From NCBI GenBank assembly GCA_018825425.1, contig JAHJEM010000063.1:1-58011 (forward strand): a DNA stretch of 58,011 nucleotides, in the 5' to 3' direction. The notes below the pieces were generated by a model. It had not been told where the DNA came from. It saw only the letters and a program-made list of their open reading frames with translations, and searched no databases. The stretch comes from Nanobdellota archaeon (lineage in GTDB: Archaea; Nanobdellota; Nanobdellia; Woesearchaeales; JAHJEM01). How positions within the stretch are numbered: the first letter of the stretch is position 1; each line of letters opens with the position of its first letter. This document shows positions 3,343 through 40,629 of this stretch, piece by piece. The translations under genes and the position numbers were made by a program.

Positions 3343-3357
3343 GCAATTACAAAAACA

Positions 3358-3365: not shown

Positions 3366-3388
3366 CGTGCTTGCAGTGCTTAATTCTT

Positions 3389-10076: not shown

Positions 10077-13076
10077 CTATTTTGCTTGATCTAGACGTAA
10101 CCAGAATTTATAGACTGTTAGAGTATTATTTGGACCCCAATCAGCAGCGTATAATATATCATCCTTTACACAAATGTGTTCCACATCAGGTATTTCTTCT
10201 GCAGGAATTACAATTCTCCCAGGACCAAAATCCCACTTTCTGACATTGATACCTGCATTGCTTGCACTGGTACGAATATACGCATAAAAATCAGGTCCAA
10301 TTCGGAACTGCGTGTTGTGACCATCTGTCCAGTAATGAGGTCTAAAAGAGGTGATATCCGCTGAGTCAAAAAGCCTTGCTTCACTTGAAATATCATAAAT
10401 AATGTATTTTCCCTGCGGACTTGTACCGATATACCAATAAGTATCATATAGCGTTTCCAAAAAATTCACATCATCTAGATTTGCTAAAGGTGCAGCAGCC
10501 AACCATTGCCTCTGCTGATCCAAGTTTTTAGTAGTCATTACCACATTATTGCCTGCTGCATAAGCAGTATGAACTCTTAATTCCAATTCTTCATTATATA
10601 CAACGTGTTCTGTCTCTTCTTCTGTAACAATATTTGTCAGTCCCAAACTACTATGTGCATTTGCTCCAACGATGATATCTCCAATTAGACTAATGTAGTT
10701 CACACCAAATTGGGTCAATACAGTTTTTTCGTGCAAATAATTGTCGGCATTAAATATAAGATACCGATCTGCAAAAACCTCATGCTGCACTATCCAATCT
10801 TGGTTAGCAGCAATTTTTATTCCATCTCTAGGATCATCTGCATCAATTCCAAGGTCAGACTGGCGAAGTGCCAAAACTCGGGTATAATTACCTATTGTAA
10901 TCCAGGAACCTGTTACCTCCAGCGTCTCAGTTTGTGAATTCCAGGTATCAAACTGTCTAGTCATCAATAGTACATACGGCGCTTCTCTAATTGTTAACTC
11001 AAAGCTATCAGGAACGCTATTGCATGCAACAGTTATTGTTTCAGTTCCTGAATATCCATCTTCAAGATCACTCAATACCAGATCATCGTTCTGGTCAACC
11101 CATATTCGGTAATGGTCATGTGAGGATTCAACTGTGAATATAAGTTCGCTATCGATATCACTGGCAAAATTCTTGAGATTATCAATAAATGCTACCGGCG
11201 GGATATTATATTTCAATGACTCATCAGGTAAAGGAACAGTCCAAACAGCCGCATCATCCACAGAATTAACATCCACTCTTATTGTTCCTGAATTAACACC
11301 ATTACAGGATAAGGAGAAAAATTTTGTTCCAAAATAATTATCATCTCTTGCTGTTAATTTGAGATCATCATTAATAATTGATAGTATAATTTCATTCAAA
11401 TCATATTCTGTGGTAAATACCAAGGGGCTATCTGGATCAATAACATAAGATGTAACATTTTCCAATACTGTTGTTCCTGGAGTGGTATCTTCATCAAAAT
11501 TTATGGTTGGAACAACACTCCATCTTGTTGGATCATCCTCTTCATGCACAATCACAGTTATGTCAGGACTTGCAACTCCATTGCAGGCTAGATTAAAAGT
11601 TTTTGTACCATACCAATTCTCTTGTAGATATGTAAGATACAAATCATCATTTCTTATCTCAAACCTTATCTCTCCCAAATCATAAGAATCGACCAACTCC
11701 AATGGACTATCAGGATCTGAAACATACTGGCTGACATAAGTCAACAGTATTGTCTCCAGATCTAAGTCTTCTGGTAATTGTATATTAGGTAGCGGCGTCC
11801 ATACCGCAGGCTCATCATCACCAGATACTGTGAGAGTAAAACTAGTTGGAATTGTATTCCCATCCACTATTACAGTCTCTGATCCATACCAATGCGGATC
11901 TAGATTTCTTACCTTAATATGCCCTCCTTCATAATATGCCTCAAAATGAGTATTATTACTGCTTACAGAGATGTCTTTTGGAGAATCAATGTCTGTCAAG
12001 AGATCATCTATGTTTGCATATGCAACGGTCCCATCAGATGAATTCTCTGCAATCTGTTGATCTATAAGGTCATCCCAAAATGCAGTATCATCAACAGACT
12101 GCACAGTCACATTAAGATCCGGACTTGGAACTCCATTACACACAAGATTCATTGACTTGGTCCCATAATAATTGTCAAGCCTATATGTTAACACTAGAGA
12201 ATCATTATCAACAACTTCAAACTTAACCTGACCCAAATCATACTCTGTCTGGAATACTAGATCAGTATCCTCATCCTGGACAAAAGTATCCAAATCCCTT
12301 GTGACCGTGGTTCCAACTGGAGTGTCTTCGTCAAACCATATTGCAGGTTGGCCGATCCATTCAGTAGGCGAATCCTCACCTTGTACATGGAGTGTGAATG
12401 ATGCGGGTACACCATTTGCCTCCAATTCAATTTCAATATCTCCAAAGTAATTGGGTTCAAGATTAAACCCTATTAGATCATTATTGCCACGCATAAAATC
12501 TAGTCTAGGGTGATTTGGCTGGGGGATGTGAACAGGATCATCTGGATCTTCAGCTAGAAGGAACAAGTTTGGGTAAATCACGAAATTACCTGTAGTATTC
12601 TCAGCAACATACTGATCTTCTAGATCTTGCCACACTGCAGGATCATCCCTGCAAGTTATGTTTAATGCAAACTTTGCAGCAGTATCATTGGCTCTCACTT
12701 CAATTGAGTCAGTACCACAGTGTTGTGCTTCCATATTCTTCAAGTAAAGACTGCTGTCTGCAAAGAACAATGTTCCATGTTGATATGGACCTGTTGAGAA
12801 TTCAGTCTCACCATCAAAGGTGATTCTGTTCTTGATTCCAGGATATACATTGATTGAATCTGTTCCACCTATTGTTCCATCAGTCTCTTCAATAGTCTGT
12901 TCCTGCAATGGTTCCCAAACAGGAACATGCTTTGCAAATGGTTCCAAAGGCTGCTCAGAACAAGACAATGAAAGAGTTAGAATACCTGCAGCAAGCAATC
13001 CTGCACCTGCTCTAATAATATTCCTAGGACTCTTGAATGCATTTACAGTTTTTGCAACAAGTGTGTCGAGGGTCAT
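10077..13076 (-). CDS. large secreted/lipid-anchored surface protein: seven ~92-aa repeats plus a ~300-aa C-terminal domain
   Basis: Signal peptide with lipobox-like LSLSC. Recurring module DDP.VW...[DE]....G.......D.DS.L.F.....L.......L.L......YYGT......CNGV.S. No known catalytic motif. Confidence 0.8.
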   Translation of the reverse strand: MTLDTLVAKTVNAFKSPRNIIRAGAGLLAAGILTLSLSCSEQPLEPFAKHVPVWEPLQEQTIEETDGTIGGTDSINVYPGIKNRITFDGETEFSTGPYQHGTLFFADSSLYLKNMEAQHCGTDSIEVRANDTAAKFALNITCRDDPAVWQDLEDQYVAENTTGNFVIYPNLFLLAEDPDDPVHIPQPNHPRLDFMRGNNDLIGFNLEPNYFGDIEIELEANGVPASFTLHVQGEDSPTEWIGQPAIWFDEDTPVGTTVTRDLDTFVQDEDTDLVFQTEYDLGQVKFEVVDNDSLVLTYRLDNYYGTKSMNLVCNGVPSPDLNVTVQSVDDTAFWDDLIDQQIAENSSDGTVAYANIDDLLTDIDSPKDISVSSNNTHFEAYYEGGHIKVRNLDPHWYGSETVIVDGNTIPTSFTLTVSGDDEPAVWTPLPNIQLPEDLDLETILLTYVSQYVSDPDSPLELVDSYDLGEIRFEIRNDDLYLTYLQENWYGTKTFNLACNGVASPDITVIVHEEDDPTRWSVVPTINFDEDTTPGTTVLENVTSYVIDPDSPLVFTTEYDLNEIILSIINDDLKLTARDDNYFGTKFFSLSCNGVNSGTIRVDVNSVDDAAVWTVPLPDESLKYNIPPVAFIDNLKNFASDIDSELIFTVESSHDHYRIWVDQNDDLVLSDLEDGYSGTETITVACNSVPDSFELTIREAPYVLLMTRQFDTWNSQTETLEVTGSWITIGNYTRVLALRQSDLGIDADDPRDGIKIAANQDWIVQHEVFADRYLIFNADNYLHEKTVLTQFGVNYISLIGDIIVGANAHSSLGLTNIVTEEETEHVVYNEELELRVHTAYAAGNNVVMTTKNLDQQRQWLAAAPLANLDDVNFLETLYDTYWYIGTSPQGKYIIYDISSEARLFDSADITSFRPHYWTDGHNTQFRIGPDFYAYIRTSASNAGINVRKWDFGPGRIVIPAEEIPDVEHICVKDDILYAADWGPNNTLTVYKFWLRLDQAK
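10986..12929 (-). repeat. in-frame tandem domain repeats (7 x ~92 aa) inside the 999-aa surface protein
   Basis: Repeat starts at about aa 50, 144, 234, 328, 419, 513 and 606, each opening with an acidic x-D-D-P/T-x-x-W motif and ending near CNGV. Confidence 0.7.
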
Positions 13077-14686
13077 TTTGTACCTATTCCAAATTCCAAT
13101 CTAAAGCCATCCTGTCTTTCGTTTTTAGATATCTGTTCTTGAGAAAACTTCATCCAATAACCTAATTCTGCTACAACGTCAAAAGGAAGATTAAAAGCTT
13201 GCAACTGTCCCTGTGCTTTGAAAGAGATAGCTATACCTGGTTCAAATTTGGCCTCTTTAATATGGATGGGTTCAAATGTCAGATTGGGTGACAGACTATC
13301 CGGCACACTACGAGAATATTCATATTGATTGTAAGACATCAAGAATGCGATACTCCCATAGAGATTACTTCTTCCCTTAGTAATATCTGCAATTCGAATA
13401 CTACCTCCAACTAAACCAATGTATATCTCAGACTCATAAGAGTGGTCCCACTCTGCAACAGGATCGTTTAGTCTATCCCTAACAGTTATATTCTCATGGA
13501 AAGAATATGTCAGAGGTAATAAATATCCTTTTCCAAAAACAGAAAAACCATGGTTAACATTGTAATCTACTCTTAACCAAGGAATCTCATTAAAAATATC
13601 TTCCATATTAACGCTTACATTTCCATTTCCCTCTGCGATCCAAGGATGGTCAATGCTATAAGCATCTTCAATTTCAGATATGCTGGAATTAATCTGTTCA
13701 GTAAGACCTTTAAATTCCTTGTTGAAAAAACCTAAGCTTACTCCCCCAGACAATACAACTCCTTTACCTAATCTTATACCTTTTCTCGTTTGTACACCGT
13801 TATCTGGTTCATTTGGCTTCAAAACTTTAACCTCAAAAACATTATATTCAATATTGTTTTTTGAATCTCTACAAAATGCATCAAACTTATATGTTCCTGG
13901 GTCATCAGGAATGGAAATCAATGCTGTTGGATCAATACTCCTGCTTTGTTCACCAGCAGGATTAATCGCACCAAAGACATAAGGCGGCACACCTCCTGTC
14001 GCCTCCCATTCTAAAGCCACTTTTAGAGGTGCAGGACCTGAATTTGGAACAGGAGTAACTGTAAACCTCAAAGGTTTCACAATCCTCTCCAATGTAAGTG
14101 TGCCATCTATGCAATCTTCAATGTCTTGGGTATGGCCATTTCCATTCAAAATAAAACCCAGATATGTTTCAAGGCTTGAATAATCAGTTTGAACACTCAA
14201 GTTTGTTGCAGGGACATTTCTTAATTGATTGCAGTCGAGATCTCCTTTACTTACCATCATGCAGGTTCCTGTCACCGGATCACATATCTTAAGGAGTTCT
14301 TGATCCATACGATATCTTTCAAACCAACTTTCAAATTTATCTGCTTCGGATTCCAATATTGTGTGTTTCTCAATGAGTTTTTCACCTTGCATGAACAATG
14401 CAACATTGCAACTGGGCTTATATCTGACATTATCAATATCAACCTGTTCATCAATCCCTTTGTCATGAAGATAAGTAAACGCAGATCCTGCCTCACGGAA
14501 GAATTGGACCATTGATCCCCCTTCCAAGCGCCAAAGATCAGGAGCTTTTTCTTCTTGTGCCTGAGGATCGATGTAATTATCTTGTGCATTGACTGACGGA
14601 AACAAGAAAGTTCCTGCTGCGAGAAGTGTAGCGATTCCTCTTCTAATGGGTGCATTAATCCTGTTAATTTTTTCAATTAGGTTCAT
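13073..14686 (-). CDS. secreted protein with a PKD-like Ig domain and a C-terminal beta-strand-rich region
   Basis: Signal peptide ATLLAAGTFLFPSVNAQ. PKD-like stretch VTPVPNSGPAPLKVALEWEATGG. The last ~235 aa show alternating hydrophobic/aromatic strands. 4-nt ATGA overlap with the downstream gene. Confidence 0.75.
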   Translation of the reverse strand: MNLIEKINRINAPIRRGIATLLAAGTFLFPSVNAQDNYIDPQAQEEKAPDLWRLEGGSMVQFFREAGSAFTYLHDKGIDEQVDIDNVRYKPSCNVALFMQGEKLIEKHTILESEADKFESWFERYRMDQELLKICDPVTGTCMMVSKGDLDCNQLRNVPATNLSVQTDYSSLETYLGFILNGNGHTQDIEDCIDGTLTLERIVKPLRFTVTPVPNSGPAPLKVALEWEATGGVPPYVFGAINPAGEQSRSIDPTALISIPDDPGTYKFDAFCRDSKNNIEYNVFEVKVLKPNEPDNGVQTRKGIRLGKGVVLSGGVSLGFFNKEFKGLTEQINSSISEIEDAYSIDHPWIAEGNGNVSVNMEDIFNEIPWLRVDYNVNHGFSVFGKGYLLPLTYSFHENITVRDRLNDPVAEWDHSYESEIYIGLVGGSIRIADITKGRSNLYGSIAFLMSYNQYEYSRSVPDSLSPNLTFEPIHIKEAKFEPGIAISFKAQGQLQAFNLPFDVVAELGYWMKFSQEQISKNERQDGFRLEFGIGTK

Positions 14687-15780
14687 TGTTTGTCCACGTA
14701 AGCCATGATTTCCACTCCCATCTTGACATCTTCACACACCATACCTTCCAATCTCAATAAATCGACATCATTTCGTCCGATAGGATTTTTCAACTGGCAC
14801 CTTGATCCTAGGAAATGACTCATGTTAGCCTCAAATTTTCCTGCTTTGTCACCAGGTACATCCAACACAAAAGCAACCTTACCATCCTTAACATACACTC
14901 CTTTATTACACTCAGGAAAATAAAACACTGCTGACTGCCGATATTGATATGCAGGATCCCCATTATTATCCTCTCCCATTTCGTATTCTGCTTGCGATAC
15001 AGTTGTTCTATTATCAATCGGACGGAAAATAGGATAGAAAATCTCAGTAGTATAGTTATCAAGAGGAAGTCCTCCTTTGATATGCCACACTAACCCAGTC
15101 ACATAGTCAAGTGTTCCTTGAACCTGCTGATTCATTGGTGTGTTGACAACATAAACATTTACTGTCTGATAAGTATTGTAATTATTTGTGACATCAATGT
15201 CAAAATTAAAGTTATAGTTATTGATCTCAAGTATTGCCAAATTTTTCTGGACAATATCAACTATCTCTTCCCTAGACATTTTCTTTGGAATAACATGTTT
15301 TGGTCGAGGTGGTCTCATGGGGATGGAAGGTGTAGGTTCGCTTGCAGCTTCCAATGCTTGCAATGATTTACTTGACTGTCTTCCTTGTTCACAGGCCTGC
15401 AATCCATTCTTGAATGCCTGATCCATAGTTGCTTCAAAATATACTACTTGGGGAGTATCATCATCCATTGGAGCTGTGCCAGCCACACATCGTCCATTTT
15501 CAAATATTGCCAATCTGTTACCTTTGCTATCATAAACCCATGTTGCATCAATATATTTTTCTCCAAAGTCTGATGTAGAAGGGAATGAATTCAAAAAGAT
15601 CTGCTTTGTGTCTGCATTCAAGGTCCAGTCCCTACCAGGTTCTTTGCATCCAGGATCCGCAGCCACTGCTTGTACCAGAAAAGTCAGACCTAATCCGACA
15701 TTGAATAGGGTGCGTACTCCTTTTTTCACAATCCCCTCAAGCTTACTCAGGACCATTGGCAATGGACCTCCATAATTCAA
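14683..15780 (-). CDS. secreted hypothetical protein
   Basis: N-terminal hydrophobic signal (NVGLGLTFLVQAVAA). 4-nt overlap with the next gene. The start may instead be the internal Met at 15756. Confidence 0.65.
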   Translation of the reverse strand: MNYGGPLPMVLSKLEGIVKKGVRTLFNVGLGLTFLVQAVAADPGCKEPGRDWTLNADTKQIFLNSFPSTSDFGEKYIDATWVYDSKGNRLAIFENGRCVAGTAPMDDDTPQVVYFEATMDQAFKNGLQACEQGRQSSKSLQALEAASEPTPSIPMRPPRPKHVIPKKMSREEIVDIVQKNLAILEINNYNFNFDIDVTNNYNTYQTVNVYVVNTPMNQQVQGTLDYVTGLVWHIKGGLPLDNYTTEIFYPIFRPIDNRTTVSQAEYEMGEDNNGDPAYQYRQSAVFYFPECNKGVYVKDGKVAFVLDVPGDKAGKFEANMSHFLGSRCQLKNPIGRNDVDLLRLEGMVCEDVKMGVEIMAYVDKQ

Positions 15781-16531
15781 GTTCTGTCTCTAAAGTCTCC
15801 TTATACTCTGGGTCTGCTATCTTGTAGGCATATTCAAAATCATCCACAGCTCCTAGCGTATCGCCCATTGTGGCTTTGACTCTTGCCATCTTGGCGTATG
15901 CTTCGGCACTTATAGGATCCACTTGAATATATGATTCATAAGCTTCTAAAGCATCTACCAGACAATCAGGTCTTTCGAAATAAGAGTCTGCCTGGCGCAT
16001 CAATGTAGGTTTGTGAGTTGGATGTATGTCCAATATTTCTGTTGCATACTTGTCCCCTGTGTCCCATACACCTGCTGAATACGCACGATTCAGCAGGATA
16101 TACATCTCGTCCAGAATAAAATTTGGCTCATCTTCTGCTCCAATAGGTGTATTGCCAACGATATTATCTAGAGGGTCATCTGCACCAATAGGAGCTTGAT
16201 TAATAATTGTATTATTAGTTTGTTTGGGCGCAGAATCCCATTTTGCGGATTGCCTAGAAGTAGGAAAAATAATATCATTCCAAGATAAATATGCCAAGGT
16301 TCCGACAACACCTATTGTTATACCAGCAGTCCACAAAAATCTTCTCAATCTTCGTTTTTTTGGAGGTGGTAGTGTATATGGTCTACTTAGCTTTCCTGAT
16401 TTTGGAGCACTCGCAGAAGTCTTTTTATCTTTCCCAGCACCGAGAAACATCTCTTCAAGGGTTTCAGGGAGAATATTGCCTTTTCTAGAAGATCCTTTTC
16501 CACTGTTCGTATCATCTTTATTACTGCCCAA
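15743..16531 (-). CDS. single-pass membrane protein with extracytoplasmic TPR-like repeats
   Basis: Basic N-terminus (PPPKKRRLRRF), TM helix LWTAGITIGVVGTLAYLSW, and C-terminal TPR-like helices (ALEAYESYIQVDPISAEAYAKMARVKATMGD...AVDDFEYAYKIADP). Confidence 0.7.
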   Translation of the reverse strand: MGSNKDDTNSGKGSSRKGNILPETLEEMFLGAGKDKKTSASAPKSGKLSRPYTLPPPKKRRLRRFLWTAGITIGVVGTLAYLSWNDIIFPTSRQSAKWDSAPKQTNNTIINQAPIGADDPLDNIVGNTPIGAEDEPNFILDEMYILLNRAYSAGVWDTGDKYATEILDIHPTHKPTLMRQADSYFERPDCLVDALEAYESYIQVDPISAEAYAKMARVKATMGDTLGAVDDFEYAYKIADPEYKETLETELELWRSIANGPE

Positions 16532-16764: not shown

Positions 16765-16784
16765 TCAAAATCGAGGTGGTATTC

Positions 16785-17228
16785 ATGTATGAATGGTTTG
16801 ATGAAATGCAAAAGATGAGAAACGAGATGGATAGGATCTTCAAAGAATTTGATGGTAGGGATGCACTGGATTATGACCCAAAAGGCAAGGCCATTGCCAA
16901 GCAGATGAGATGCCCTACAATGAATCAATATGAGACCCATACCAAGCTTGTGACTGAAATAGAGCTACCAGGTGTTGACAAGAATGATGTCAAGCTATTC
17001 ATTGCAGAGGATCATGCCGAAGTCAAGGTAGAACAAAAGCATGAGGCAGAAGTCAAAGGATACTACAGAAAAGAGGCCAGAAGCCAGAATTTCTTCAGGA
17101 GAATTCCATTTCCTGTAAAGGTCAATGTAGACCTGGCCAAGGCAGAACAGAAAGATGGAGTCTTAAGGATAGAGATTCCAAAATTAAAAATAGACCATAA
17201 GAATATAAGGCAACTTCAGATCGAATGA
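16785..17228 (+). CDS. hsp20: small heat-shock protein, Hsp20/alpha-crystallin family
   Basis: Alpha-crystallin core with C-terminal GVLRIEIPK. ATG 16785 is preceded by GAGGTGG. The track's GTG 16776 lies inside that SD. Confidence 0.9.
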   Translation: MYEWFDEMQKMRNEMDRIFKEFDGRDALDYDPKGKAIAKQMRCPTMNQYETHTKLVTEIELPGVDKNDVKLFIAEDHAEVKVEQKHEAEVKGYYRKEARSQNFFRRIPFPVKVNVDLAKAEQKDGVLRIEIPKLKIDHKNIRQLQIE

Positions 17229-17725
17229 GAGTGTGTAAAATGAAACAGGAAGAGAAAACAAAGAAAACAAGGGTTGCGAAAAAGGATAATGAAAAAGAAT
17301 TGCAAGATAACCTACAGAGGCTCCAGGCTGAATTCGAGAACTACAAGAAAAGAGTTGCAAAAGAAAGCCAAGAGATTTACTCACATGCTAATGAGAACCT
17401 AATAAAGGAACTTCTTGGTGTTTTGGACAACTTTGAACTTGCTCTCGGCAAAGAGAATGACCAAGGCGGATTCTATAAGGGTGTAGAACTTATATATGGA
17501 AATCTTTATTCCAGCCTTGAAAAATTTGGTTTGAAGAGAATACAAGCAAGGGGACAGGCATTTGATCCTCGTTTGCACGAAGCATTGTTGACTGAAGAAT
17601 CTGACAAAGAAGCTGACACTGTACTTGAGGAACTCCAAACAGGTTATGTATTGAATGATAAGGTGCTAAGGCACACTAAAGTTAAGGTATCAAAACCGAA
17701 AACTTCAAAAACATCCGACGAGTAA
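17225..17725 (+). CDS. grpE: nucleotide exchange factor GrpE
   Basis: LQAEFENYKKRVAKE coiled coil and FDPRLHEAL beta domain. ATGA overlap with hsp20. An alternative start is ATG 17240. Confidence 0.9.
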   Translation: MRVCKMKQEEKTKKTRVAKKDNEKELQDNLQRLQAEFENYKKRVAKESQEIYSHANENLIKELLGVLDNFELALGKENDQGGFYKGVELIYGNLYSSLEKFGLKRIQARGQAFDPRLHEALLTEESDKEADTVLEELQTGYVLNDKVLRHTKVKVSKPKTSKTSDE

Positions 17726-17747
17726 ATAACCCTGGGTGATATTTACA

Positions 17748-18299
17748 ATGGTAATAAAAAAAGAATCAAGTGTTGATGATGTACTCAAATCTAGTGATGA
17801 ATGCAAGAAATGTGGCAAATGCTGTGAAAAAGGTTTTGGCTTTGTACTAAATCATGAGATATCCAAGATGGCTAAGTTCATGGGCCAGAATGAAACCAAT
17901 TTCATAAGAAAGTTCCTTGAACCTGTTGAAGTATTTCATACTTCAAAACACAGGACCAAGCGCAGAAAAAGTAACAAAGACAAGCCATACGGACGATGTG
18001 TATTTCATGATTCCAAAACAGGTGAATGCAAGATTCATGATGCCAAACCATTGTATTGTAAGCTTGGAACTTGTCAAACGCACGGAGAATCGTTAATTCA
18101 ATGGTATTACCTTAATTTCTTCGTAAATCCAAAGGATCCTTCCTCTGTCAGAGAATGGAAGATCTATGCAGATATGAAAGAAGTGATTCCTGGTGGAAAA
18201 CCACAGGATCTGGTCGGAATGGAAAATCTGCTGAAGATCCTTAACTATAGTGAACTCACTATGGCACCACCAAAACCTAAGCTCAAGAAGAAACAATAA
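17748..18299 (+). CDS. YkgJ/UPF0153-type CxxCxxCC cysteine-cluster protein
   Basis: [15 protein letters not shown]-terminal cluster and a later CVFHD...[13 protein letters not shown] motif. Confidence 0.7.
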
Positions 18300-18340
18300 A
18301 TTGTGTATTTAAGAAATTAAATTATGTATTAGAGGATAAA

Positions 18341-20233
18341 ATGATGGAAAAAATAATAGGTATCGATCTTGGAACAACATTCTCAGCTGCTGCTGTACTG
18401 GAAGGAGGAAAACCAGTAATAATTCCAAATGCTGAAGGACAGCGGACAACTCCGAGTGTGGTGAGTATAACAAAAGATGGTGAGAGACTTGTAGGCCAAC
18501 TGGCTAGAAATCAAGCAATCACAAATCCTGCACATACAGTACGAAGCATCAAAAGACATATGGGTGAAGACTTTAAGGTAAAGATGTGGGATAAAGAATA
18601 CACACCTCAAGAAGTAAGTGCTATGATCCTTCAGAAGCTTAAAGCTGATGCAGAAAGCTATCTTGGCCAGAAAATTAACAAAGCAGTCATCACTACTCCT
18701 GCTTATTTTACAGATGCACAAAGGCAAGCAACCAAAGACGCAGGAAAGATTGCAGGACTTGAAGTGCTAAGGATAATCAACGAGCCTACTGCTGCAAGCC
18801 TCGCATACGGTCTTGACAAGAAAGACAAGGAACAGACAGTACTTGTCTTTGACTTTGGAGGTGGAACATTTGATGTCTCCATACTAGAACTTGGCGATGG
18901 AGTATTTGAGGTTAAGGCAACCAATGGCGACAACCATCTTGGTGGAGATGACATTGATGAAATACTCATTGATTGGATAGCTACTGAATTCAAGAAAGAA
19001 AAAGGAATTGATCTTAGAGAGGATAGGACAGCTCTTCAAAGATTAAAGGAAGCTGCTGAGAAGGCAAAGATTGAACTATCATCCAAGATGAAGGCAACAA
19101 TCAATCTTCCGTTCATAACTGCTGGAGCATCAGGTCCTCAACACCTTGAAATTGAGATTTCAAGATCAAAATATGAACAGTTGATTGAGAATATAATCAA
19201 AAGACTAGAAGGTCCTTGCAGACAGGCAATGAAAGATGCCAATATGACTGGAGACCAAATAGATAAAGTATTACTCGTTGGAGGAAGTACTAGAATTCCT
19301 TCAGTTCAGGAACTTGTAAAAGGACTTACTGGTAAAGATGGAGATAAGTCAGTCAATCCTGATGAAGCAGTATCTTTAGGTGCTGCTCTTCAAGGAGGAA
19401 TACTTGCAGGCGAAGTAAAAGATGTTCTTTTACTTGATGTAACTCCACTATCTCTAGGTATTGAGACTCTTGGTGGAGTAATGACACCAGTTATTACCAA
19501 GAATACAACAATCCCTACCAAGAAAAGTCAGACATTCTCAACTGCTGCAGATAATCAACCAGCAGTAAGCATCCATGTATTACAAGGAGAAAGAAGCATG
19601 GCTTCTGACAACAAATCTCTTGGAAGGTTTGACCTGGTCGGAATCCCACCTGCACCAAGAGGTATACCTCAGATAGAGGTCACCTTTGACATCGATGCTA
19701 ATGGCATAGTTCATGTCAGTGCAAAGGATCTCGCAACCAAGAAAGAACAGAGCATCAAGATTACTGCAACTAGCAACTTGAGTGAAGATGAAGTCAAAAA
19801 GATGCGAGAAGATGCAGAGAAGTTTGCTGATGAAGACAAGAAAAGAAAAGAAGAGATAGAGACAATTAACAATGCTGATACTCTTGTATACAGTACTGAA
19901 AAATTGCTCAAAGACTTTGAGGGCAAAGCAGACTCTAAGGAAATCGATTTAATCAAAAAAGAGATCAGTGAACTTAAGACTCTTCTGGAACCAGAAAAGA
20001 AAGATGCTGATGCAATAAAAAAGAAGATGGATGGCATCAATGAAAAGATCCAGAAAATCAGCACTGAAATGTATCAGAAAGTGGCTGAAGAGCAAGCAAA
20101 AGCACAACAAGCACAAGCAGGTGCTCAACCTGGAGGAGAAACACCTCCAGGTGGCAAGAAAGACGATGTTGTCGACGCAGAGTTCAAGGAAGTTGATGAT
20201 GAGAAAAAGAAGGATAAAGAAAAAAAGAAATGA
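18341..20233 (+). CDS. dnaK: molecular chaperone DnaK (Hsp70)
   Basis: [31 protein letters not shown], plus substrate-binding and lid domains. Confidence 0.97.
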
Positions 20234-20242
20234 GGATTAAAA

Positions 20243-20482
20243 ATGGCTAAAGCAAAAAAACCAAAAGAAAAAAAGACTTCTGAAGGACCTATTGTCCAGA
20301 TGTTTGGTCTGAGGATGATAAAGGAGATCAATCCAAAAACCAAGCAAGTTCATCTTGAGATCAAATCAAAGTCCGAAGGCATGCCAATGGCAGAAGCAAT
20401 GCTTCTAGTCGAAGGCTGGCTCAAGGCTGAAAAGGAAAAGATGATTGGACCAGTATTCAAGCAAAAAAAAGAAGTGAAATAA
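20243..20482 (+). CDS. small Lys-rich hypothetical protein between dnaK and dnaJ
   Basis: 79-aa ORF starting 9 nt after dnaK. No recognisable motif. Confidence 0.45.
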   Translation: MAKAKKPKEKKTSEGPIVQMFGLRMIKEINPKTKQVHLEIKSKSEGMPMAEAMLLVEGWLKAEKEKMIGPVFKQKKEVK

Positions 20483-20496
20483 GAGAATAAGCAGAA

Positions 20497-21078
20497 ATGA
20501 TTACTAAAGAACAGGCTCAAGAGTTAATCAAGGAATTCAAGCTTCCTAAAAATATTGTTGAACATACGAATACGGTTAATCGGATTTGCTTGTATCTAGG
20601 CAATAAGGCAAAGCTTGGAAATGATGAATTAAATCTTTTAGATGTCAGTTCAATGCTCCATGACCTATTCAAGCCCATTGAATTGGATCTTGACGAGGAA
20701 GTGTTTGATACAGAATCTCGTGCATTCTGGAAAGCGCAGAAAGAGAAGTATCAGGGTATGGATCATACAGTTGCAGCCTATGAATATTTCAAGGATTCTG
20801 AGCCCGAAATAGCATTCCTTATAAGATCTCACAAGTTCAAAACCATACTCGAACAAAGAAAAAAATCATTACCAGAAAAGATCCTTAAGTACGCTGACCT
20901 CCGAGTCAAACACGACCAAATAGTAAGTATGAAAGAGCGGTTAGACGACATCAAAACAAGGTATGCTAAGCCAACATCCTCACAAATCCCATTCTCGGTA
21001 TTCCAGGACTTTGAGAATGAATTAGTTGATGCAATAGGATTTAGGCCTGATGAACTCTTGGAGTTGAACCAAAAATGA
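20497..21078 (+). CDS. HD-domain phosphohydrolase
   Basis: EHTNTVNRI...[10 protein letters not shown] (H...HD) and a later H in IRSHKF. 4-nt overlap with dnaJ. Confidence 0.7.
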
Positions 21079-22160
21079 ACGATCCTTATGAAATTCTAGG
21101 AGTAAGCAAGAATGCATCAAAGGAAGATATAAAGAAAGCTTATAAGAAACTTGCAAAAAAATATCATCCAGACCTGAACAAAGAGGAAGGATCAGATGCA
21201 AAGTTCAAGGAGCTTAACAATGCTTTCTCAATTTTAAATGATGATCAGAAGAGATCACAATATGACCAGTTTGGTGGAGATGCTTTCAAGTATGGTCAAG
21301 GTGGTCCTGGTGCAGGTGGTTTTGGAGACTTTGGTGCTGATTTTGGTTTTGGAGACATTTTCGAGACTTTTTTTGGTGGGGGTGGCGGAGGAAGCAGACG
21401 CAGAAGAACTGAACGTGGATCTGACCTCTTATTTGATGTAGATATCGAATTGGAGGATGCGGCTTTTGGCTTAACCAAGACCTTTGAACTCAAGAAGAAT
21501 GAAACCTGTTCTGATTGCAGTGGTAAAGGTGGAAGCAACCCTATAAAATGTTCTGATTGTGGAGGATCAGGTGTTGTAACAGAGCAAAGAAGGACTATGT
21601 TTGGAATATTCCAGACTCAATCACCTTGCAGAGCATGCCAAGGCAAAGGTGAACAATTCAAGAATACATGTACTACCTGTCATGGCGAAGGCAGGGCAAA
21701 GCAGAAAAAGAAACTTGAGATCAAGATACCTGCAGGAGTACAGGATGGAAACCAGGTAAGACTTCCTGGTGAAGGTGAAGCCGGAAAACAGGGTGCACCA
21801 GCAGGAAATCTATATGTGCGGGTGCATATCAAGCCTCACGAATTCTTTGAACGTATTGATGATGATGTTCTTTTGGAGGTTCCAATCAGTTTTACCCAAG
21901 CCGCGCTTGGAGCAGAAATAAAAGTTCCAACTTTAGAAGGCAAAGCTAATTTAAAGATAGATCCAGGCACCCAATCCGGCACAGTTTTTAGAATGAAAGG
22001 AAAAGGTATTCCTCACATAAGAGGATATGGCTCTGGCGACCAGAATGTCAGAGTCCATGTGAACATTCCAAAGAAGCTTTCAAGAAAACAAAAGAATATT
22101 ATTGAGGATCTGAAGAAAGAATTAGGGAAGGATGCAGAGCCGCAGAAGGGGATGTTTTAA
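21075..22160 (+). CDS. dnaJ: co-chaperone DnaJ (type I)
   Basis: J domain with KYHPD, Gly/Phe-rich linker, four CxxCxG-type zinc-finger motifs, and C-terminal client-binding domains. Confidence 0.95.
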
Positions 22161-23959: not shown

Positions 23960-24628
23960 TTATTCCAATCTCTCAATCGCCCTCTCCAAGTTCTCTCGTG
24001 CTTTTATTTCGTATTTATCAGCGAAATGATCTGTATAGAAAATTCTAGATCTTTCTAGAAAACTATGGAAGATTCTAGAACGTCCTTCCCTGTATTGTTC
24101 ATCAGGAACCCACAGGTATTCTTGGCGAATTGCTGCGTCATATTCGTCAAATCGTTTCTCTGGTTTTCCTAATATGGACAAATCAATATCCACTATGTAC
24201 TCTTGACTAAATCCTATTGGTCTCTCTGTATGTCTTGTGGCAAGAATGCATTTCTCAACCTCAGTAATATAATCGAGGCTCAAATTATCAAGGTGTTCAG
24301 GTTCTTGTTTCGCAATTCCAAGGCGTAACAACAAAGATCTTGCCAATCTCGCACTCTGTTCTTCATTGTCATGAGCTCTGGTGTCATAGACTGCGTCATG
24401 GAACCATATGGCCATCTTTAGACGTTCATCAATATCCAACAATTCATCTTTGATTCTTGCATATTCCACCAAGCATTCATCAATGTGTTGAAGGTTATGA
24501 TAATGTCTATGAGGTTCTGAATATCTCTGAATTAATTCAGCAAATAACTGTTCATAAGGTTTTCCTACTTCTTGGGGCCACCATGAATCAAGAAAATCCT
24601 TTCTGAGTTTTTCAACTAACTCATTCAT
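23960..24628 (-). CDS. HD-superfamily metal-dependent phosphohydrolase (COG4339-like)
   Basis: EPHRHYHNLQHI and WFHDAVYD motifs. Confidence 0.7.
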   Translation of the reverse strand: MNELVEKLRKDFLDSWWPQEVGKPYEQLFAELIQRYSEPHRHYHNLQHIDECLVEYARIKDELLDIDERLKMAIWFHDAVYDTRAHDNEEQSARLARSLLLRLGIAKQEPEHLDNLSLDYITEVEKCILATRHTERPIGFSQEYIVDIDLSILGKPEKRFDEYDAAIRQEYLWVPDEQYREGRSRIFHSFLERSRIFYTDHFADKYEIKARENLERAIERLE

Positions 24629-25758
24629 TTTACCCTCAGCTCTGCTAGAACCGTTTCAAAGACAGCCCTTATGTTGTTATCAGGTGCACCATCTGAATTC
24701 TGAATACTCCAAATCTTTCCTTGCTTGTCCCGTTCTATTACATGGTTCAATAATCCATATTTTGTTTTATAATCATATTGGCTATGGATTCTTCTCTGGG
24801 TTTGATCAAAGGAGTACCCTCTTTCAATTAGTCTGCGATACTGACTTTCCTCATCAACATATACCAAAACAACATTGTTATTACTAAGATAACCCCCATC
24901 AGATTCTGCTAACAACGCACTGTTGACCAGAATTAATCCCTGTTTTCCATATAGAGCCTTTCTAAATCTTACTTGGATAGGTGAATACATCAATTCATTG
25001 AGCTTTGCTAGCTTGTCAGGCTCTCCAAATACAAGTCCTCCAAGCACTTTTCTGTCTATGGTTCCATCTGGTCTCCTCACACTTCTTCCAAAGGTTCTTT
25101 CAATATTTTCCCTTACTGTCTCATAACCTGGTTCTTTCAGGTTTCCAAGAATATCATGAGCTACGTGGTCAAGTTCTATGTTGTAAACATTAACACCATA
25201 TTCTGCTCCCAATTCCACAAACCTATTACTAACGTGTGACTTACCCGCACCTATCTCACCAGACACACCAATAAGATACTGTCCACTAATACGCTCTTCA
25301 AGGCATTGCTTGACATAAAGAGGAACATATTCATGAATGTCTCCCTGATGATTTTGAATTTCTTTGACTGCACTGCTGCTCACATGAGCTAATTCTGGTC
25401 TGGCAAACAGAATATGAGTATCTATACCTAGATTTTGGCTGTCTCCAACATGATGAAGAGTTCTTTCATAATCAAAATCTTTAGAATCCCTCACACCTTT
25501 GACAATCACACTTGCACCTTGTTCATATGCGTAATCAACAAGCAAACCTTCAAAAGGCGTGACTATGATATTGGACACGTCCTGTAGAGATATTCTAGCC
25601 ATCTCTGTTCTTTCATCTAATGAGAAGGTGTAGTTCTTGGCAGGATTTACACCAATACCAATGATTACCTCTTCAAATACATGTGCTGCTCTTTTGATAA
25701 TGTCTATGTGCCCATATGTGATTGGGTCTCCTGAAAATGCGTATATTGCTTTTGTCAT
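24625..25758 (-). CDS. coaDE: bifunctional bacterial-type phosphopantetheine adenylyltransferase (CoaD) / dephospho-CoA kinase (CoaE) fusion
   Basis: The N-terminal half aligns with CoaD (AIYAFSGDPITYGHIDIIKRA; VKGVRDSKDFDYE; SSSAVKEI..HQGD). The C-terminal half aligns with CoaE (IGVSGEIGAGKSHV P-loop). Start moved to ATG 25756-25758 (MTKAIYAF), 27 nt from a TTTAATATTTA box. The track's upstream extension crosses the divergent promoter. Confidence 0.8.
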   Translation of the reverse strand: MTKAIYAFSGDPITYGHIDIIKRAAHVFEEVIIGIGVNPAKNYTFSLDERTEMARISLQDVSNIIVTPFEGLLVDYAYEQGASVIVKGVRDSKDFDYERTLHHVGDSQNLGIDTHILFARPELAHVSSSAVKEIQNHQGDIHEYVPLYVKQCLEERISGQYLIGVSGEIGAGKSHVSNRFVELGAEYGVNVYNIELDHVAHDILGNLKEPGYETVRENIERTFGRSVRRPDGTIDRKVLGGLVFGEPDKLAKLNELMYSPIQVRFRKALYGKQGLILVNSALLAESDGGYLSNNNVVLVYVDEESQYRRLIERGYSFDQTQRRIHSQYDYKTKYGLLNHVIERDKQGKIWSIQNSDGAPDNNIRAVFETVLAELRVK

Positions 25759-25855
25759 CTTAGTAAATAAATCCATTCCACTAAATATTAAATCTACTAG
25801 TTGAAATTCCATATTTAGGGGAAAATTTATATATAAATAACTCTTTTTGCAGTGT

Positions 25856-26818
25856 ATGAGGCTTGATTTAGTTGATAAGAAGATCCTGTGTGAGCTGGAT
25901 CTTAATTGCAGAACATCAATATCAAGGATTGCAAAGAAGCTTCGCATCAGTAGAGATGTTGCAGGTTATCGGATTAAGGGATTAGAAAAAGAGGGCGTAA
26001 TCTCTAAGTACATCACTGCAGTCAATCTTGGAATGCTTGGCTATCAGACCAGAAAGATATACTTCAGGATCTGGAGTGGCCAGGAAGAAGAAAAAGAATT
26101 TGTTTCATTCTTAGTTAATCATAAACAGACCATAAGTGTCCTAAAAACAGAAGGCTCATTTGATTATTCTGTTGCAATAGCCGTAAAGAACATCCATGAG
26201 CTTGAAGAGTTCTTGATGAAAGTGAGAAATGATTTCAAGAGCCTGGTAAAGGATTACACAGTAAGTATAGTTGTTTATTCTCGAATCTTTAAGTTGAACA
26301 AACTTTTACTCCATCCAAAATACTCTGAATTGAAAGTCGAGAAGTATGAAGGAGAATCAAAAGACATTGAAATGGATGACAAAGATGTGACCATATTGAA
26401 AGTCTTGAGCCAGAATGCCAACATGTCATTGGTTGATCTTTCCAAAAAGACAAAACTTTCATTGGATGTTGTAAAATACAGGGTAAGGCATTTTGACAAG
26501 AACTTTCTTCTGTCCCACAGGATAATGCTTGATTTTGAGAAGATAGGATATTATCAATACGTGATCATGCTTCGGATTCGTCAAGCAACATACAAGGATG
26601 AGAATATGTTGGCAGAATGGTGTCATCAGAAAAACAATGTGTTGTTTTTCAACAAGAGAATTGCAGTGTATGACTTTGAAATAAATGTGGCCATTACAAA
26701 CCTGAAAGAATTGACTGACTTCATCACAGAATTGAAACAGAGGTTTGGAGGCATGATATCAAGCTATGACACCATGCTAAAGAGCAAGTTATTAAAATTA
26801 AATTATGTTCCGTTTTAG
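25856..26818 (+). CDS. Lrp/AsnC-family regulator with two complete HTH + ligand-domain modules in tandem
   Basis: DLVDKKILCELDLNCRTSISRIAKKLRISRDVAGYRIKGLEKEGVI, and again DDKDVTILKVLSQNANMSLVDLSKKTKLSLDVVKYRVRHF. ATG 25856 lies 26 nt from TTTATATATA. Confidence 0.75.
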   Translation: MRLDLVDKKILCELDLNCRTSISRIAKKLRISRDVAGYRIKGLEKEGVISKYITAVNLGMLGYQTRKIYFRIWSGQEEEKEFVSFLVNHKQTISVLKTEGSFDYSVAIAVKNIHELEEFLMKVRNDFKSLVKDYTVSIVVYSRIFKLNKLLLHPKYSELKVEKYEGESKDIEMDDKDVTILKVLSQNANMSLVDLSKKTKLSLDVVKYRVRHFDKNFLLSHRIMLDFEKIGYYQYVIMLRIRQATYKDENMLAEWCHQKNNVLFFNKRIAVYDFEINVAITNLKELTDFITELKQRFGGMISSYDTMLKSKLLKLNYVPF

Positions 26819-29436: not shown

Positions 29437-29567
29437 CCCTCCATAGCTTAGTGGCTAGAGCGCTCGGCTGTAGAAGTTGCAAGACGGTCTCAGCACATTC
29501 TCTGAGTAAGAATGAAATGCAATCAGCGGCCACCGAGAGATCCCCGGTTCAAGTCTGGGTGGAGGGA
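29437..29567 (+). tRNA. tRNA-Tyr(GTA) with a ~58-nt intron at 37/38
   Basis: Acceptor CCCTCCA/TGGAGGG (C1:G72, the archaeal/eukaryal Tyr identity pair). D arm GCTT-AGTGGCTA-GAGC. Anticodon stem CTCGG/CCGAG, anticodon GTA at 29470-29472. T arm CCCGG-TTCAAGT-CTGGG, discriminator A. Confidence 0.88.
29474..29531 (+). other. putative tRNA-Tyr intron (canonical position)
   Basis: 58 nt lie between position 37 and the 3' half of the anticodon stem. Intron CAGC can pair with exon GCTG, which includes the first anticodon base. Confidence 0.75.
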
Positions 29568-31286: not shown

Positions 31287-31577
31287 ACGCTGCTTGGATT
31301 GAGGTACTTATTTAAATATATTGGAAACTTACCTGACAAAAATATCATACATTTTCCCCAATCACCTCAGAATATGCTTAAAATGGCCCTGAAAGTGCCA
31401 AAAGACCGCAATGTTTATAAAGGGTTTGGAGTTTCTAGCGGTATTAATCCCTATATAGACCAATTTGCGGCTCAAGAATCCAAAATGACAAAGAATTCTT
31501 TACCAATCCACAATTACAATTATCCTAATACAGATGTATCCATATCATACTCATGCCCTGGTAGTGTAGTTCGGCTC

Positions 31578-31594
31578 ATATAAATGCGACAGCT
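31578..31594 (+). other. putative D-loop intron of tRNA-Asp (17 nt)
   Basis: ATATAAATGCGACAGCT separates AGTTCGGCTC from ATCAT. Boundaries are approximate. Confidence 0.55.
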
Positions 31595-31611
31595 ATCATG
31601 AAGCCCTGTCG

Positions 31612-31624
31612 ACTTCAGGCGGAC
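31612..31624 (+). other. putative canonical 37/38 intron of tRNA-Asp (13 nt)
   Basis: ACTTCAGGCGGAC. CCTGTC/GACAGG pairing spans the exon-intron junction. Confidence 0.65.
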
Positions 31625-31646
31625 AGGCTTCGACCCGGGTTCGAAT

Positions 31647-31679
31647 GCAGTGAATGTGACAAGATTTGCTGCCGTGTGT
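31647..31679 (+). other. putative T-loop intron of tRNA-Asp (33 nt)
   Basis: The insert lies between TTCGAAT and the CCCGG 3' half of the T stem. It has an internal GCAG...CTGC stem. Confidence 0.55.
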
Positions 31680-31720
31680 CCCGGCCAGGGCGCTTAAATG
31701 GGCCGGTAGCTCAGCCTGGA

Positions 31721-31734
31721 GAAATGCGGGCAAT
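31721..31734 (+). other. putative D-loop intron of tRNA-Lys (~14 nt)
   Basis: GAAATGCGGGCAAT lies inside an otherwise standard AGCCTGG.A D-loop. Intron CGGGC can pair with exon GCCTG. Confidence 0.55.
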
Positions 31735-31751
31735 AGAGCACACCACTTTTA

Positions 31752-31782
31752 ACCAAAACGTCTTTTCCAGACGTTGAAAGTA
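31752..31782 (+). other. putative canonical 37/38 intron of tRNA-Lys (31 nt)
   Basis: Contains the hairpin AACGTC-TTTTCCA-GACGTT. Removing it closes CACCA/TGGTG. Confidence 0.65.
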
Positions 31783-31804
31783 ATGGTGTGGTCGCGGGTT
31801 CAAA

Positions 31805-31816
31805 AAACTTTGAAAA
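31805..31816 (+). other. putative T-loop intron of tRNA-Lys (12 nt)
   Basis: The T-loop reads TTCAAA-AAACTTTGAAAA-T. Exon TTCAAA is complementary to intron TTTGAA. Confidence 0.5.
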
Positions 31817-31852
31817 TCCCGTCCGGCCCATTTTATAATATTGGGGGATAAA

Positions 31853-32083
31853 ATGCCAAAGCAACTAATTAAACACATGCTAGTACCTGAGCATGTCAAG
31901 CTCAAAGAGAAGGAGAAGAAATCTCTTTATGAAGAGATGAGGATCACATTTGGTGATTTACCTAAAATTTCTGTTAACGACGCTGCATTAGAACACTTAG
32001 ATGTCAAACTAGGTGATGTCATAAAGATTAAAAGAATAAGCGTAACTGCAGGAGAATGCTTCTTTTACAGAGGCGTAACATAA
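31853..32083 (+). CDS. rpoH: DNA-directed RNA polymerase subunit H (Rpo5)
   Basis: HMLVPEHVKL..EKEKKSLYEE...LPKISVNDAA...GDVIKIKRIS.TAGE..FYR. ATG 31853 is preceded by GGGGGAT. First gene of the RNAP operon. Confidence 0.9.
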   Translation: MPKQLIKHMLVPEHVKLKEKEKKSLYEEMRITFGDLPKISVNDAALEHLDVKLGDVIKIKRISVTAGECFFYRGVT

Positions 32084-39380: not shown

Positions 39381-39799
39381 TGGCAAAAGTAACATATAAT
39401 GTTGAAATATTACAATTCATGTCCCTTTTTGAAAAGGTTACTCATTCTCATCTTAAAGATTGCTTTTTTTCTCGAGATAAAATGGTTTTTTTGGTCCAAG
39501 AAGGCCAACTGGGAAAGGCATTAGGTAAGAATAAGTCTAACGTCACCCGATTAGAGAAACTTATTAATAAGCGGTTTAAGATTGTTGAATTCAATTCTGA
39601 CATGCACCAGTTCATTGCTAACCTAATGGCACCGCTCCGAATAGCCAAGATGGATGAAGATGCAGGCGTGGTTACAATTACTGGCCCTGATTCTAAGACT
39701 AAAGGCTTGATGATCGGTGCGAGAGCTCAGAATCTTCGTGAATATGAAAGTGTAGTCAAGAAATACTTTCCTGAATTGGTTGAGATTAAGGTTGTTTAG
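39380..39799 (+). CDS. nusA: archaeal NusA-like transcription factor (two KH domains)
   Basis: ISLFEKVT...VKDC...FLVQEGQLGKALGKNKSNVTRLEKL and a second KH with GLMIGARAQNL. Confidence 0.88.
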   Translation: MAKVTYNVEILQFMSLFEKVTHSHLKDCFFSRDKMVFLVQEGQLGKALGKNKSNVTRLEKLINKRFKIVEFNSDMHQFIANLMAPLRIAKMDEDAGVVTITGPDSKTKGLMIGARAQNLREYESVVKKYFPELVEIKVV

Positions 39800-40629
39800 T
39801 CAGAAACAATTATCTTATGCAAATACTTTACTTCTAAACCAGCATTTGTTATGATCTTCTTCAATCTCAATGCATGTTGACCTACCGCAGCAAGATCAAT
39901 TATAACATCTTTGACTAGAACATCTGTCTTGCTAATGGCTTCTGCCAACGTCTCTTTTGTGAAATTATCTACTTGGTTAGATGGGCACATATGCCCTATC
40001 ACTATTTTGTCATTAATGATCTCTTGATTTCCCAATCTGTTTTGCATTAAAGGCACTATATTCCGCATATAATGATCCCCTCCTACAACTATAGACGCAT
40101 CACGTTTGTTTGGCTTGAAATTTGCCAGAATATCCTGGACCACTTTAACTATTACTTCTGCTGCTTTTTCATCTTCCCAGGCCTCTTGATTAGAACCAAT
40201 TTCAAGGTTCAGTACAGGTACTGACACGTCTGGTCCGTGGTGCGTGGCTTCGAGGCATACAGAAAAGTCAGGAAGATCATTGTTTCTTATTAATGAGTTA
40301 TAGGTGAATTTAAGAAGAGAGGGCTAAATCATGGAAAGTTTTCCTGGTTTGCCCCCAAGGTCTTTGGTATCATCTCCCTCAATATCAATAGACCATAGTC
40401 CATTCCAGTTACCGGAAGGGTGAACTGTGAAGAGTTTGAGCCGGTCACGGAGGCTATGGATAGTTATGGCTACTAGATAATCATAGTCTTTCGGTACAGT
40501 ACCATCTATAAAGTCCAAGTGTCTTCCAGGTATTTCAATCATTGGAATATTCTTATCCTTCAAAAGCTGATTGACTCTTAGGTTAAATTTCTCTTCATAC
40601 CATTTCGAACATATGATTCCAATTCTCAT
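39796..40629 (-). pseudogene. dtdA: archaeal-type D-aminoacyl-tRNA deacylase (DtdA) interrupted by one in-frame TAG at 40324-40326
   Basis: Track ORFs 40324..40629 and 39796..40227 are in the same frame. Extending the second upstream gives PSLLKFTYNSLIRNNDLPDFSVCLEATHHGPDVSVPVLNLEIGS directly after ..GGKPGKLSMI-TAG. HPSGNW, ATHHGP, EIGS and GGDHY motifs are all intact. Confidence 0.8.

Follow-up and report, generated by a model that had tools for sequence, protein, structure and literature searches.

Adjacent tRNA-Asp(GTC) and tRNA-Lys(TTT) genes with three predicted introns each in a DPANN archaeon

Transfer RNA (tRNA) genes interrupted by several introns have been described in the Thermoproteales (Pyrobaculum and Thermofilum; Sugahara et al. 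2007/2008, as cited in PMC4033280 and PMC8450103), where a single gene can hold up to three introns of the bulge-helix-bulge (BHB) type at canonical and non-canonical positions. Thermoproteales tRNA genes carry 0.84 introns on average, and in P. calidifontis 71 introns are spread over 46 genes. Within the DPANN superphylum, Kaneta et al. 2018 (PMC5829648) report that several lineages have splicing endonucleases (EndAs) of the alpha4 type with an L3 loop, in association with a greater number of disrupted tRNA genes; that DPANN genomes, one Woesearchaeote among them, show increased disruption of tRNA genes by multiple introns; and that DPANN tRNA sets are incomplete and need manual curation. In other archaea, relaxed splice motifs need endonucleases with a specificity loop. 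Here we analysed contig JAHJEM010000063.1, a stretch of 58,011 nucleotides (nt) referred to below as the window, and within it two adjacent genes, tRNA-Asp(GTC) and tRNA-Lys(TTT), at positions 31555-31830. We conclude that they are very probably two functional tandem tRNA genes of a Woesearchaeota/Nanoarchaeota-type DPANN archaeon, each with three protein-spliced BHB introns, one per arm.

Gene pair and mature products

The first-pass annotation of the window had proposed that the removal of three inserts from each gene restores the cloverleaves of tRNA-Asp(GTC) and tRNA-Lys(TTT), and had named an ARAGORN run on the region as a check. On re-reading the sequence, the DNA at 31555-31830 agreed with the letters transcribed there. 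ARAGORN called neither gene from unspliced DNA, whereas the sequences spliced in silico gave full cloverleaves, tRNA-Asp(gtc) of 75 nt and tRNA-Lys(ttt) of 74 nt, as had been predicted. The tRNA-Lys gene begins 7 nt 3' of tRNA-Asp.

Standard detectors overlooked the pair. In default mode, ARAGORN made zero tRNA calls across the whole window; with introns allowed, it found only a tRNA-Gly(GCC) gene at 8107-8218(-) and a tRNA-Tyr(GTA) gene at 29437-29567(+), and Rfam at the gathering threshold reported only these same two tRNA genes in the window. A permissive Rfam search (E<=10) of 31400-32000 returned no tRNA, just noise (abiF and snoRNA-like matches, E>0.5). A scan of both strands of the window anchored on the T arm and acceptor identified four credible tRNA genes, namely Asp, Lys, Gly and Tyr, with no second copy of Asp or Lys. 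All four are interrupted (8 introns in 4 genes). The introns of tRNA-Gly (41 nt) and tRNA-Tyr (58 nt) lie at position 37/38, each with a 4-bp central helix (H) formed from nucleotides 32-35. The tRNA-Tyr gene lies 2 kb from the Asp-Lys pair, with two minus-strand open reading frames (ORFs) between.

The Asp and Lys genes are genuine multi-intron tRNA genes, far beyond what chance would produce. The pair recurs in synteny in dozens of related genomes, in which each insert is present or absent. Two other classes of interrupted gene were ruled out. Self-splicing group I or group II introns do not fit inserts of 12-33 nt, and there was no Rfam match to them in 31400-32000 at E<=10. Split or permuted tRNA genes do not fit four exons that lie colinear within 138 or 131 nt per gene.

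Splice junctions in the three arms

The archaeal BHB motif consists of the 4-bp central helix H, two 3-nt bulges, and outer (h) and inner (h') helices. We scored all pairs of cut sites for this geometry, with H formed by exon nucleotides a-5..a-2 and intron nucleotides b-5..b-2; the scoring also covered the 3-nt bulges, cut after the second nucleotide, and the two flanking helices. BHB or relaxed BHB geometry was found in the right register at all six introns (Table 1), including the D-loop and T-loop junctions, whose folding and scoring had been suggested as a further check. Five of the six carry relaxed motifs (hBH/BHL/HBh') without a proper inner or outer helix, and only Asp intron 3 comes near a strict hBHBh'. 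Four of the six introns are located outside the anticodon loop.

In tRNA-Asp, the first-pass annotation had the length of the D-loop insert right (17 nt) but set its boundaries 2 nt off, at 31578-31594. We place the intron at 31576-31592, because it is only there that a BHB-like junction forms (H, 31570-31573/31587-31590, 3/4 bp; bulges 31574-31576 and 31591-31593; inner helix CAT/ATG, 31577-31579/31584-31586, 3 bp). The boundaries 31578-31594, together with their sequence-equivalent shifts, were rejected, with H of <=2 bp. The corrected junction yields the mature D-loop GGCCTATCAT / GGCCUAUCAU, identical to that of intron-less orthologues (for example L002 and L043; such labels denote individual loci of the comparative set described below). 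The second Asp insert stood exactly where it had been placed (31612-31624, 13 nt), with H of 4 bp, an outer helix of 7 bp and an inner side that is loop only (hBH-loop). For the T-loop insert, removal of 31647-31679, as originally drawn, leaves the same mature sequence; the BHB register puts the intron at 31646-31678, and its 9-bp inner helix (31647-31655/31664-31672) makes the junction a near-canonical hBHBh'.

In tRNA-Lys, inserts of about 14, 31 and 12 nt had been expected, and the exact intervals are 31720-31733, 31752-31782 and 31805-31816. The two exon-intron complementarities singled out beforehand, TTCAAA/TTTGAA and GCCTG/CGGGC, are real and form central BHB helices. At intron 1, a 4-bp H (GCCT/GGGC, 31714-31717/31728-31731) is accompanied by the 3' bulge AA^T (the caret marks the cut) and an h' of 1 bp; its outer helix is the D stem beyond one A14.A21 mismatch, or 0 bp by the strict definition. 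Intron 2 contains a 7-bp internal hairpin (AACGTCT/AGACGTT), offset from the 5' bulge. Intron 3 has the 5-bp T stem as its outer helix and again the 3' bulge AA^T, with H at 31799-31802/31811-31814 and its 5' site within the loop (hBH-loop).

RNAfold minimum free energy (MFE) structures of both unspliced precursors retained the acceptor and T stems. For the Lys precursor, the MFE fold reproduced extended D, anticodon and T arms with 3-nt 3' bulges, and at intron 3 the T stem, the helix and the 3-nt bulge; for Asp, it contained the T stem and the 9-bp inner helix of intron 3. The three BHBs of a gene can coexist, because each is local to a separate arm.

Two short repeats were observed in these introns. 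In the Lys T-loop (31799-31814), TTCAAA and TTTGAA form a perfect 6-nt inverted repeat flanking AAAC, which is compatible with the speculative idea that the 12-nt intron arose by local inverted duplication of the T-loop. The heptamer AAATGCG is common to both D-loop introns (Asp 31582-31588, Lys 31722-31728) and could reflect chance, structural constraint or common origin; an argument for common origin from this heptamer was rejected, as it is too short.

Table 1. Positions of the tRNA genes, their exons and introns, and the adjacent rpoH
Feature	Position	Strand	Description	Support
tRNA-Asp(GTC) gene	31555..31692	+	138 nt unspliced, 75 nt mature, CCA not encoded	Spliced form called by ARAGORN
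Asp exon 1	31555..31575	+	Acceptor 5' strand, D-stem 5' strand, D-loop through C20	Spliced alignment, BHB register, orthologue consensus
Asp intron 1	31576..31592	+	17 nt, D-loop, after mature nt 21 (C20), Sprinzl 20/20a	Relaxed BHB
Asp exon 2	31593..31611	+	D-loop end, D-stem 3' strand, anticodon stem 5' strand, anticodon GTC 31608-31610, G37	
Asp intron 2	31612..31624	+	13 nt, canonical 37/38	H CTGT/GCGG 4 bp, outer helix 7 bp
Asp exon 3	31625..31645	+	A38, anticodon stem 3' strand, variable loop, T-stem 5' strand, T54-A59	
Asp intron 3	31646..31678	+	33 nt, T-loop 59/60	H TTCG/CGTG 3/4 bp, outer helix = T stem 5 bp
Asp exon 4	31679..31692	+	T60, T-stem 3' strand, acceptor 3' strand, discriminator G73	
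tRNA-Lys(TTT) gene	31700..31830	+	131 nt unspliced, 74 nt mature	Spliced form called by ARAGORN
Lys exon 1	31700..31719	+	Acceptor 5' strand, D-stem 5' strand, D-loop through G19	
Lys intron 1	31720..31733	+	14 nt, D-loop, after mature nt 20 (G19), Sprinzl 19/20	Relaxed BHB
Lys exon 2	31734..31751	+	T20-A21, D-stem 3' strand, anticodon stem 5' strand, anticodon TTT 31748-31750, A37	
Lys intron 2	31752..31782	+	31 nt, canonical 37/38	H CTTT/AAAG 4 bp, outer helix 7 bp
Lys exon 3	31783..31804	+	A38, anticodon stem 3' strand, variable loop, T-stem 5' strand, T54-A59	
Lys intron 3	31805..31816	+	12 nt, T-loop 59/60	H TTCA/TGAA 4 bp (31799-31802/31811-31814)
Lys exon 4	31817..31830	+	T60, T-stem 3' strand, acceptor 3' strand, discriminator A73	
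rpoH	31854..32083	+	First gene of rpoH-rpoB''-rpoB'-rpoA operon; 23 nt after tRNA-Lys; syntenic anchor	ORF list and translation

Intron turnover at the orthologous locus

The pair lies upstream of an RNA polymerase operon whose first ORF (31854..32083) we take from its sequence to be rpoH. The RpoB'' encoded in this operon is up to 79% identical to proteins of Nanoarchaeota/Woesearchaeota metagenome-assembled genomes (MAGs), which bears out the DPANN-like context suggested at first pass. The comparative set comprised 80 MAG loci with RpoB'' homologues and their 3-kb flanks, in which orthologues were located by probing with the exons and by spliced alignment. An Asp-Lys pair sits directly upstream of rpoH in most of the 80 loci (about 60), and 122 genes aligned well (56 Asp and 66 Lys). 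Sorted by intron number, the 122 comprise 25 intron-less genes, 57 with a single intron, 34 with two and 6 with three, a mean of ~1.17 introns per gene.

About 143-146 inserts of >=10 nt were counted in the 122 genes, nearly all at the same three sites as in the window. In Asp orthologues, 4-5 lie in the D-loop, 32 at 37/38 and 33 at 59/60; the corresponding numbers for Lys are 13, 36 and 15, with a few at 31/32 and elsewhere. Three loci (L028, L041 and L043) carry both genes without introns, contiguous exactly at the predicted junctions, and the Rfam tRNA scores of intron-less orthologues reach 56-58 bits for Asp and 70-75 bits for Lys. Multi-intron orthologues (L076, L007, L001 Asp and L002 Asp) are missed by Rfam, like the window pair. 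The closest relatives of the window (L001, L002 and L076; RpoB'' 71-79% identity) possess different subsets of the three introns, and these introns differ in length and sequence, which fits the active intron gain that the first-pass annotation had envisaged, or active turnover. The pattern of presence and absence amounts to very rapid intron turnover at one orthologous locus across about 70 genomes.

Triple-intron genes occur in other members of the group (L007 Asp and L076 Lys, and from a metagenome search L082 Asp and L092 Lys). Lys genes use extra non-canonical sites, at 31/32 in L056, L057, L067 and L086/L087 and around position 43 in L010, L019 and L069; those of L056 and L057 combine two anticodon-arm introns (31/32 and 37/38) with one at 59/60. 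Apparent introns of 63-91 nt in the 3' acceptor strand of Lys genes in L062, L077 and L074 were dismissed as alignment artefacts, with poor BHB scores and an extension into the rpoH coding sequence. An exact 45-mer spanning the Asp intron 3 junction was unmatched in metagenome contigs, so that no second assembly of the same genome was recovered there, and a look-up of the exact RpoB' protein gave no record. In L028 (2059-2187) and L043 (2378-2506), Asp is immediately preceded by another tRNA gene with an intron, so that three tRNA genes form a cluster; in L043 the stretch just 5' of Asp is similar to the 3' end of tRNA-Tyr from the window.

The splice motifs are conserved well above background. 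H was fully paired in 110 of 146 inserts, compared with 18.8% of length-matched random positions in the same loci, and full pairing together with an outer helix of >=2 bp was found in 93 of 146 (64%), compared with 2.7% of controls. By pair counting, 97.9% of cells in the 59/60 BHB were paired, against 86% in shuffles and <=60% in slid registers, and its covariation score was reached by 0 of 500 shuffles. The pair between position 57 and the intron at these sites is A-U in 19 cases, G-C in 11 and G-U in 2. Accordingly, the intron base opposite R57 covaries: TTCA occurs with TGAA and TTCG with CGAA/CGGA, and there is one double change, TCCA/TGGA.

The interiors of the orthologous inserts have unrelated sequences, and their lengths span 12-122 nt. 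With only the splice motif constrained while the interior varies, this is the pattern expected of removed sequence. The same signature, in which sequence and length of the inserts vary freely while only BHB-forming nucleotides are kept, argues against the notion that the inserts stay in and the tRNAs work with enlarged D and T loops. The tRNA L-shape needs the G18/G19-U55/C56 elbow, and inserts at 19/20-20/20a and 59/60 would disrupt it. A chance or assembly artefact is countered by the recurrence of the same architecture in independent assemblies. Either possibility, retained inserts or artefact, seems to us so improbable as to be negligible.

Failure of standard detectors to find either gene would also be expected if both loci were decaying tRNA pseudogenes with insertions, with functional intron-less copies elsewhere in the genome. 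We consider this very unlikely. The exons carry no stem-breaking mutation and are nearly identical to those of intron-less orthologues; the inserts sit exactly at BHB-forming positions, whose helices covary across lineages; selection acts on the splice motifs; the locus is a conserved syntenic Asp-Lys pair in some 60 genomes; and the window has no second Asp or Lys copy. Small DPANN genomes usually carry single-copy tRNA genes, which also weighs against decay.

The D-loop inserts call for separate consideration, as only the 37/38 and 59/60 inserts might be ordinary EndA introns, with those of the D-loop handled differently (by refolding after the other removals, by another nuclease, or by inefficient regulatory splicing). 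Their junctions are the most relaxed of all (Asp, H 3/4 and outer helix 1 bp; Lys, outer helix strictly 0 bp), the Asp MFE fold lacks a D-loop BHB, and CGACAG in Asp intron 1 is complementary to CTGTCG of the anticodon loop and could compete with the BHB. Against this, the D-loop H helix and an AA^Y 3' bulge are kept in 13 orthologues of Lys and 4 of Asp, and in 12 independent metagenome contigs. The 13 Lys inserts share the same register, and 11 of them have H of 4 bp; the Asp site is occupied in L001, L006 and L076, and the 12 contigs came from searching metagenome contigs with a pattern for Asp genes whose D-loop is interrupted at the corrected position. In addition, the Lys D stem can act as an outer helix after one A.A mismatch, and EndA is known to process relaxed hBH/HBh' motifs in other archaea (PMC4033280 and PMC5829648). 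A special or ordered D-loop pathway is improbable.

Processing, genomic context and relation to known systems

In the precursor, each of the D, anticodon and T arms would extend separately into a helix. Its 4-bp H would be built from four conserved loop nucleotides (Asp U16-G18 or Lys G15-U17a; 32-35; U54-R57) and the complementary 3' part of the intron. Flanking H, the splice sites would lie in two 3-nt bulges, or in a bulge and a loop, and EndA would cut between the second and third bulge nucleotides. An RtcB-type ligase would join the exons and circularise the introns. The resulting tRNAs of 75 and 74 nt would then receive CCA post-transcriptionally, given that no CCA is encoded. Because each BHB is local to one arm, the introns should be removable in any order. 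It is reasonable to expect the host EndA to accept relaxed (hBH/BHL) motifs, that is, to have broad specificity, because five of the six window introns have them; this agrees with PMC5829648.

Several points weigh against this account. We infer splicing itself from gene structure, junction geometry, conservation and intron polymorphism, and the parts given to EndA and RtcB would follow established archaeal tRNA biology (PMC4090602, PMC4033280 and PMC8450103). A Pfam scan of 40 window ORFs found no EndA (PF01974/PF02778) or RtcB, and no alignable TATA/BRE element was found upstream of tRNA-Asp across the orthologues. The Asp D-loop junction is weak, with a U.C mismatch in H and a single G.U pair as its outer helix. 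Finally, the BHB registers in the comparative data are the best of +/-5 nt shifts, which inflates the scores somewhat, the controls having been treated alike.

The Asp and Lys genes are probably co-transcribed. Between tRNA-Lys and rpoH there is a gap of 23 nt, and a Shine-Dalgarno-like run, GGGGGAT, precedes rpoH (31831-31856); in many orthologous loci (for example L003, L004, L013, L015 and L019) the gap is 10-25 nt. So short a gap could not accommodate a TATA/BRE promoter of its own for rpoH. The tRNA pair and the RNA polymerase operon may share one transcript, in which case tRNA 3' processing would create the 5' end of the operon.

Elsewhere in the window, tRNA-related proteins cluster (187-981, 1441-4663 and 39796-40227), comprising a TRM13-like methyltransferase, threonyl- and seryl-tRNA synthetases and a D-aminoacyl-tRNA deacylase fragment of 143 amino acids that matches the C-terminal part of the profile. 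A bacterial-type chaperone cluster at 16776-22160 encodes hsp20, grpE, a CxxCxxCC protein, a 630-amino-acid ORF, an HD-domain protein and dnaJ; by position and size, the 630-amino-acid ORF is probably dnaK. A PPAT-like/CoaE fusion is encoded at 24625-25947. Four large ORFs of 999, 537, 365 and 262 amino acids lie in a run at 10077-16531(-); in the Pfam scan, the first three were unmatched and the 262-amino-acid ORF had only a sub-threshold TPR match.

We count the Asp and Lys genes as further BHB-intron tRNA genes, because the features that define this class at the sequence level were all found in them. They are thus another instance of a phenomenon known in archaea, and stand out by how many introns they hold and how rapidly these turn over, with ~1.2 introns per gene at the locus across some 60 genomes and 3 per gene in the window pair. 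The first-pass annotation overrated the novelty, as disrupted, multi-intron tRNA genes in DPANN, including one Woesearchaeote, had already been reported in PMC5829648. In the literature compared, we found no description of neighbouring genes that each reach the known maximum of three introns, of one intron per arm with conserved loop nucleotides as the H strand, or of rapid turnover at one locus across about 70 genomes. We regard the finding as solid and useful for annotation and for work on intron evolution, and as not conceptually surprising.

For annotation, the implication is that part of the DPANN 'missing tRNA' problem, and of the host dependence inferred from it, is likely a detection artefact, because ARAGORN and Rfam miss the window pair as well as multi-intron orthologues in public MAGs; the same was suspected in PMC5829648. 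For evolutionary studies, every combination of the three introns among close relatives at one locus offers a good natural data set on gain and loss. For enzymology, relaxed motifs at five of six junctions, including D- and T-loop introns of 12-14 nt, predict a broad-specificity EndA. The homotetrameric alpha4 EndA was long thought strict. The predicted enzyme falls in a lineage reported to have this type.

A more ambitious interpretation, which we put forward tentatively and think somewhat doubtful, is that Woesearchaeota-type DPANN archaea are a second, independent hot spot of tRNA-intron proliferation that rivals or exceeds the Thermoproteales. Introns would be repeatedly gained and lost at the three loop sites, where universally conserved nucleotides (notably U54-U55-C56-R57) give one strand of the BHB, so that any tRNA could host the same intron. 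If so, active gain would proceed by intron transposition, by reverse splicing between tRNAs or by local inverted duplication, as hinted by Lys TTCAAA/TTTGAA, and the alpha4-type endonuclease would have evolved broad specificity.

Compared with the Thermoproteales, the present locus shares many very short introns, relaxed hBH/HBh' motifs and an intron content that varies between related species. The differences are in lineage (Woesearchaeota/Nanoarchaeota-like DPANN, whereas Thermoproteales are Crenarchaeota), in genome character (mesophile-like and AT-rich, ~38% GC), in the endonuclease (alpha4 with an L3 loop expected here from the literature, as opposed to (alpha-beta)2 with a CSL/L1 loop) and in intron placement, which is clustered here at three hot spots, one per arm, rather than at 'seemingly random' sites. 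Intron 2 of both Asp and Lys is an ordinary canonical 37/38 BHB intron, with a 4-bp H from nucleotides 32-35, whereas the other four introns fall elsewhere than the anticodon loop. Split and permuted tRNA genes (Nanoarchaeum equitans and Caldivirga; PMC3218864) likewise have BHB-processed junctions, use the same endonuclease and occur in DPANN and Crenarchaeota; the exons here, in contrast, are colinear and contiguous, and trans-splicing or permutation is unnecessary. The closest parallel lies in the same superphylum, in the disrupted DPANN tRNA genes linked to L3-loop alpha4 or epsilon2 EndA (PMC5829648; ARMAN-2, Fujishima 2011 / Hirata 2012, PMC3488258). The available text of PMC5829648 does not contain this Asp-Lys locus, triple-intron genes of Woesearchaeota or the population-wide pattern of presence and absence; the pair is exactly the kind of hidden gene which that text predicts.

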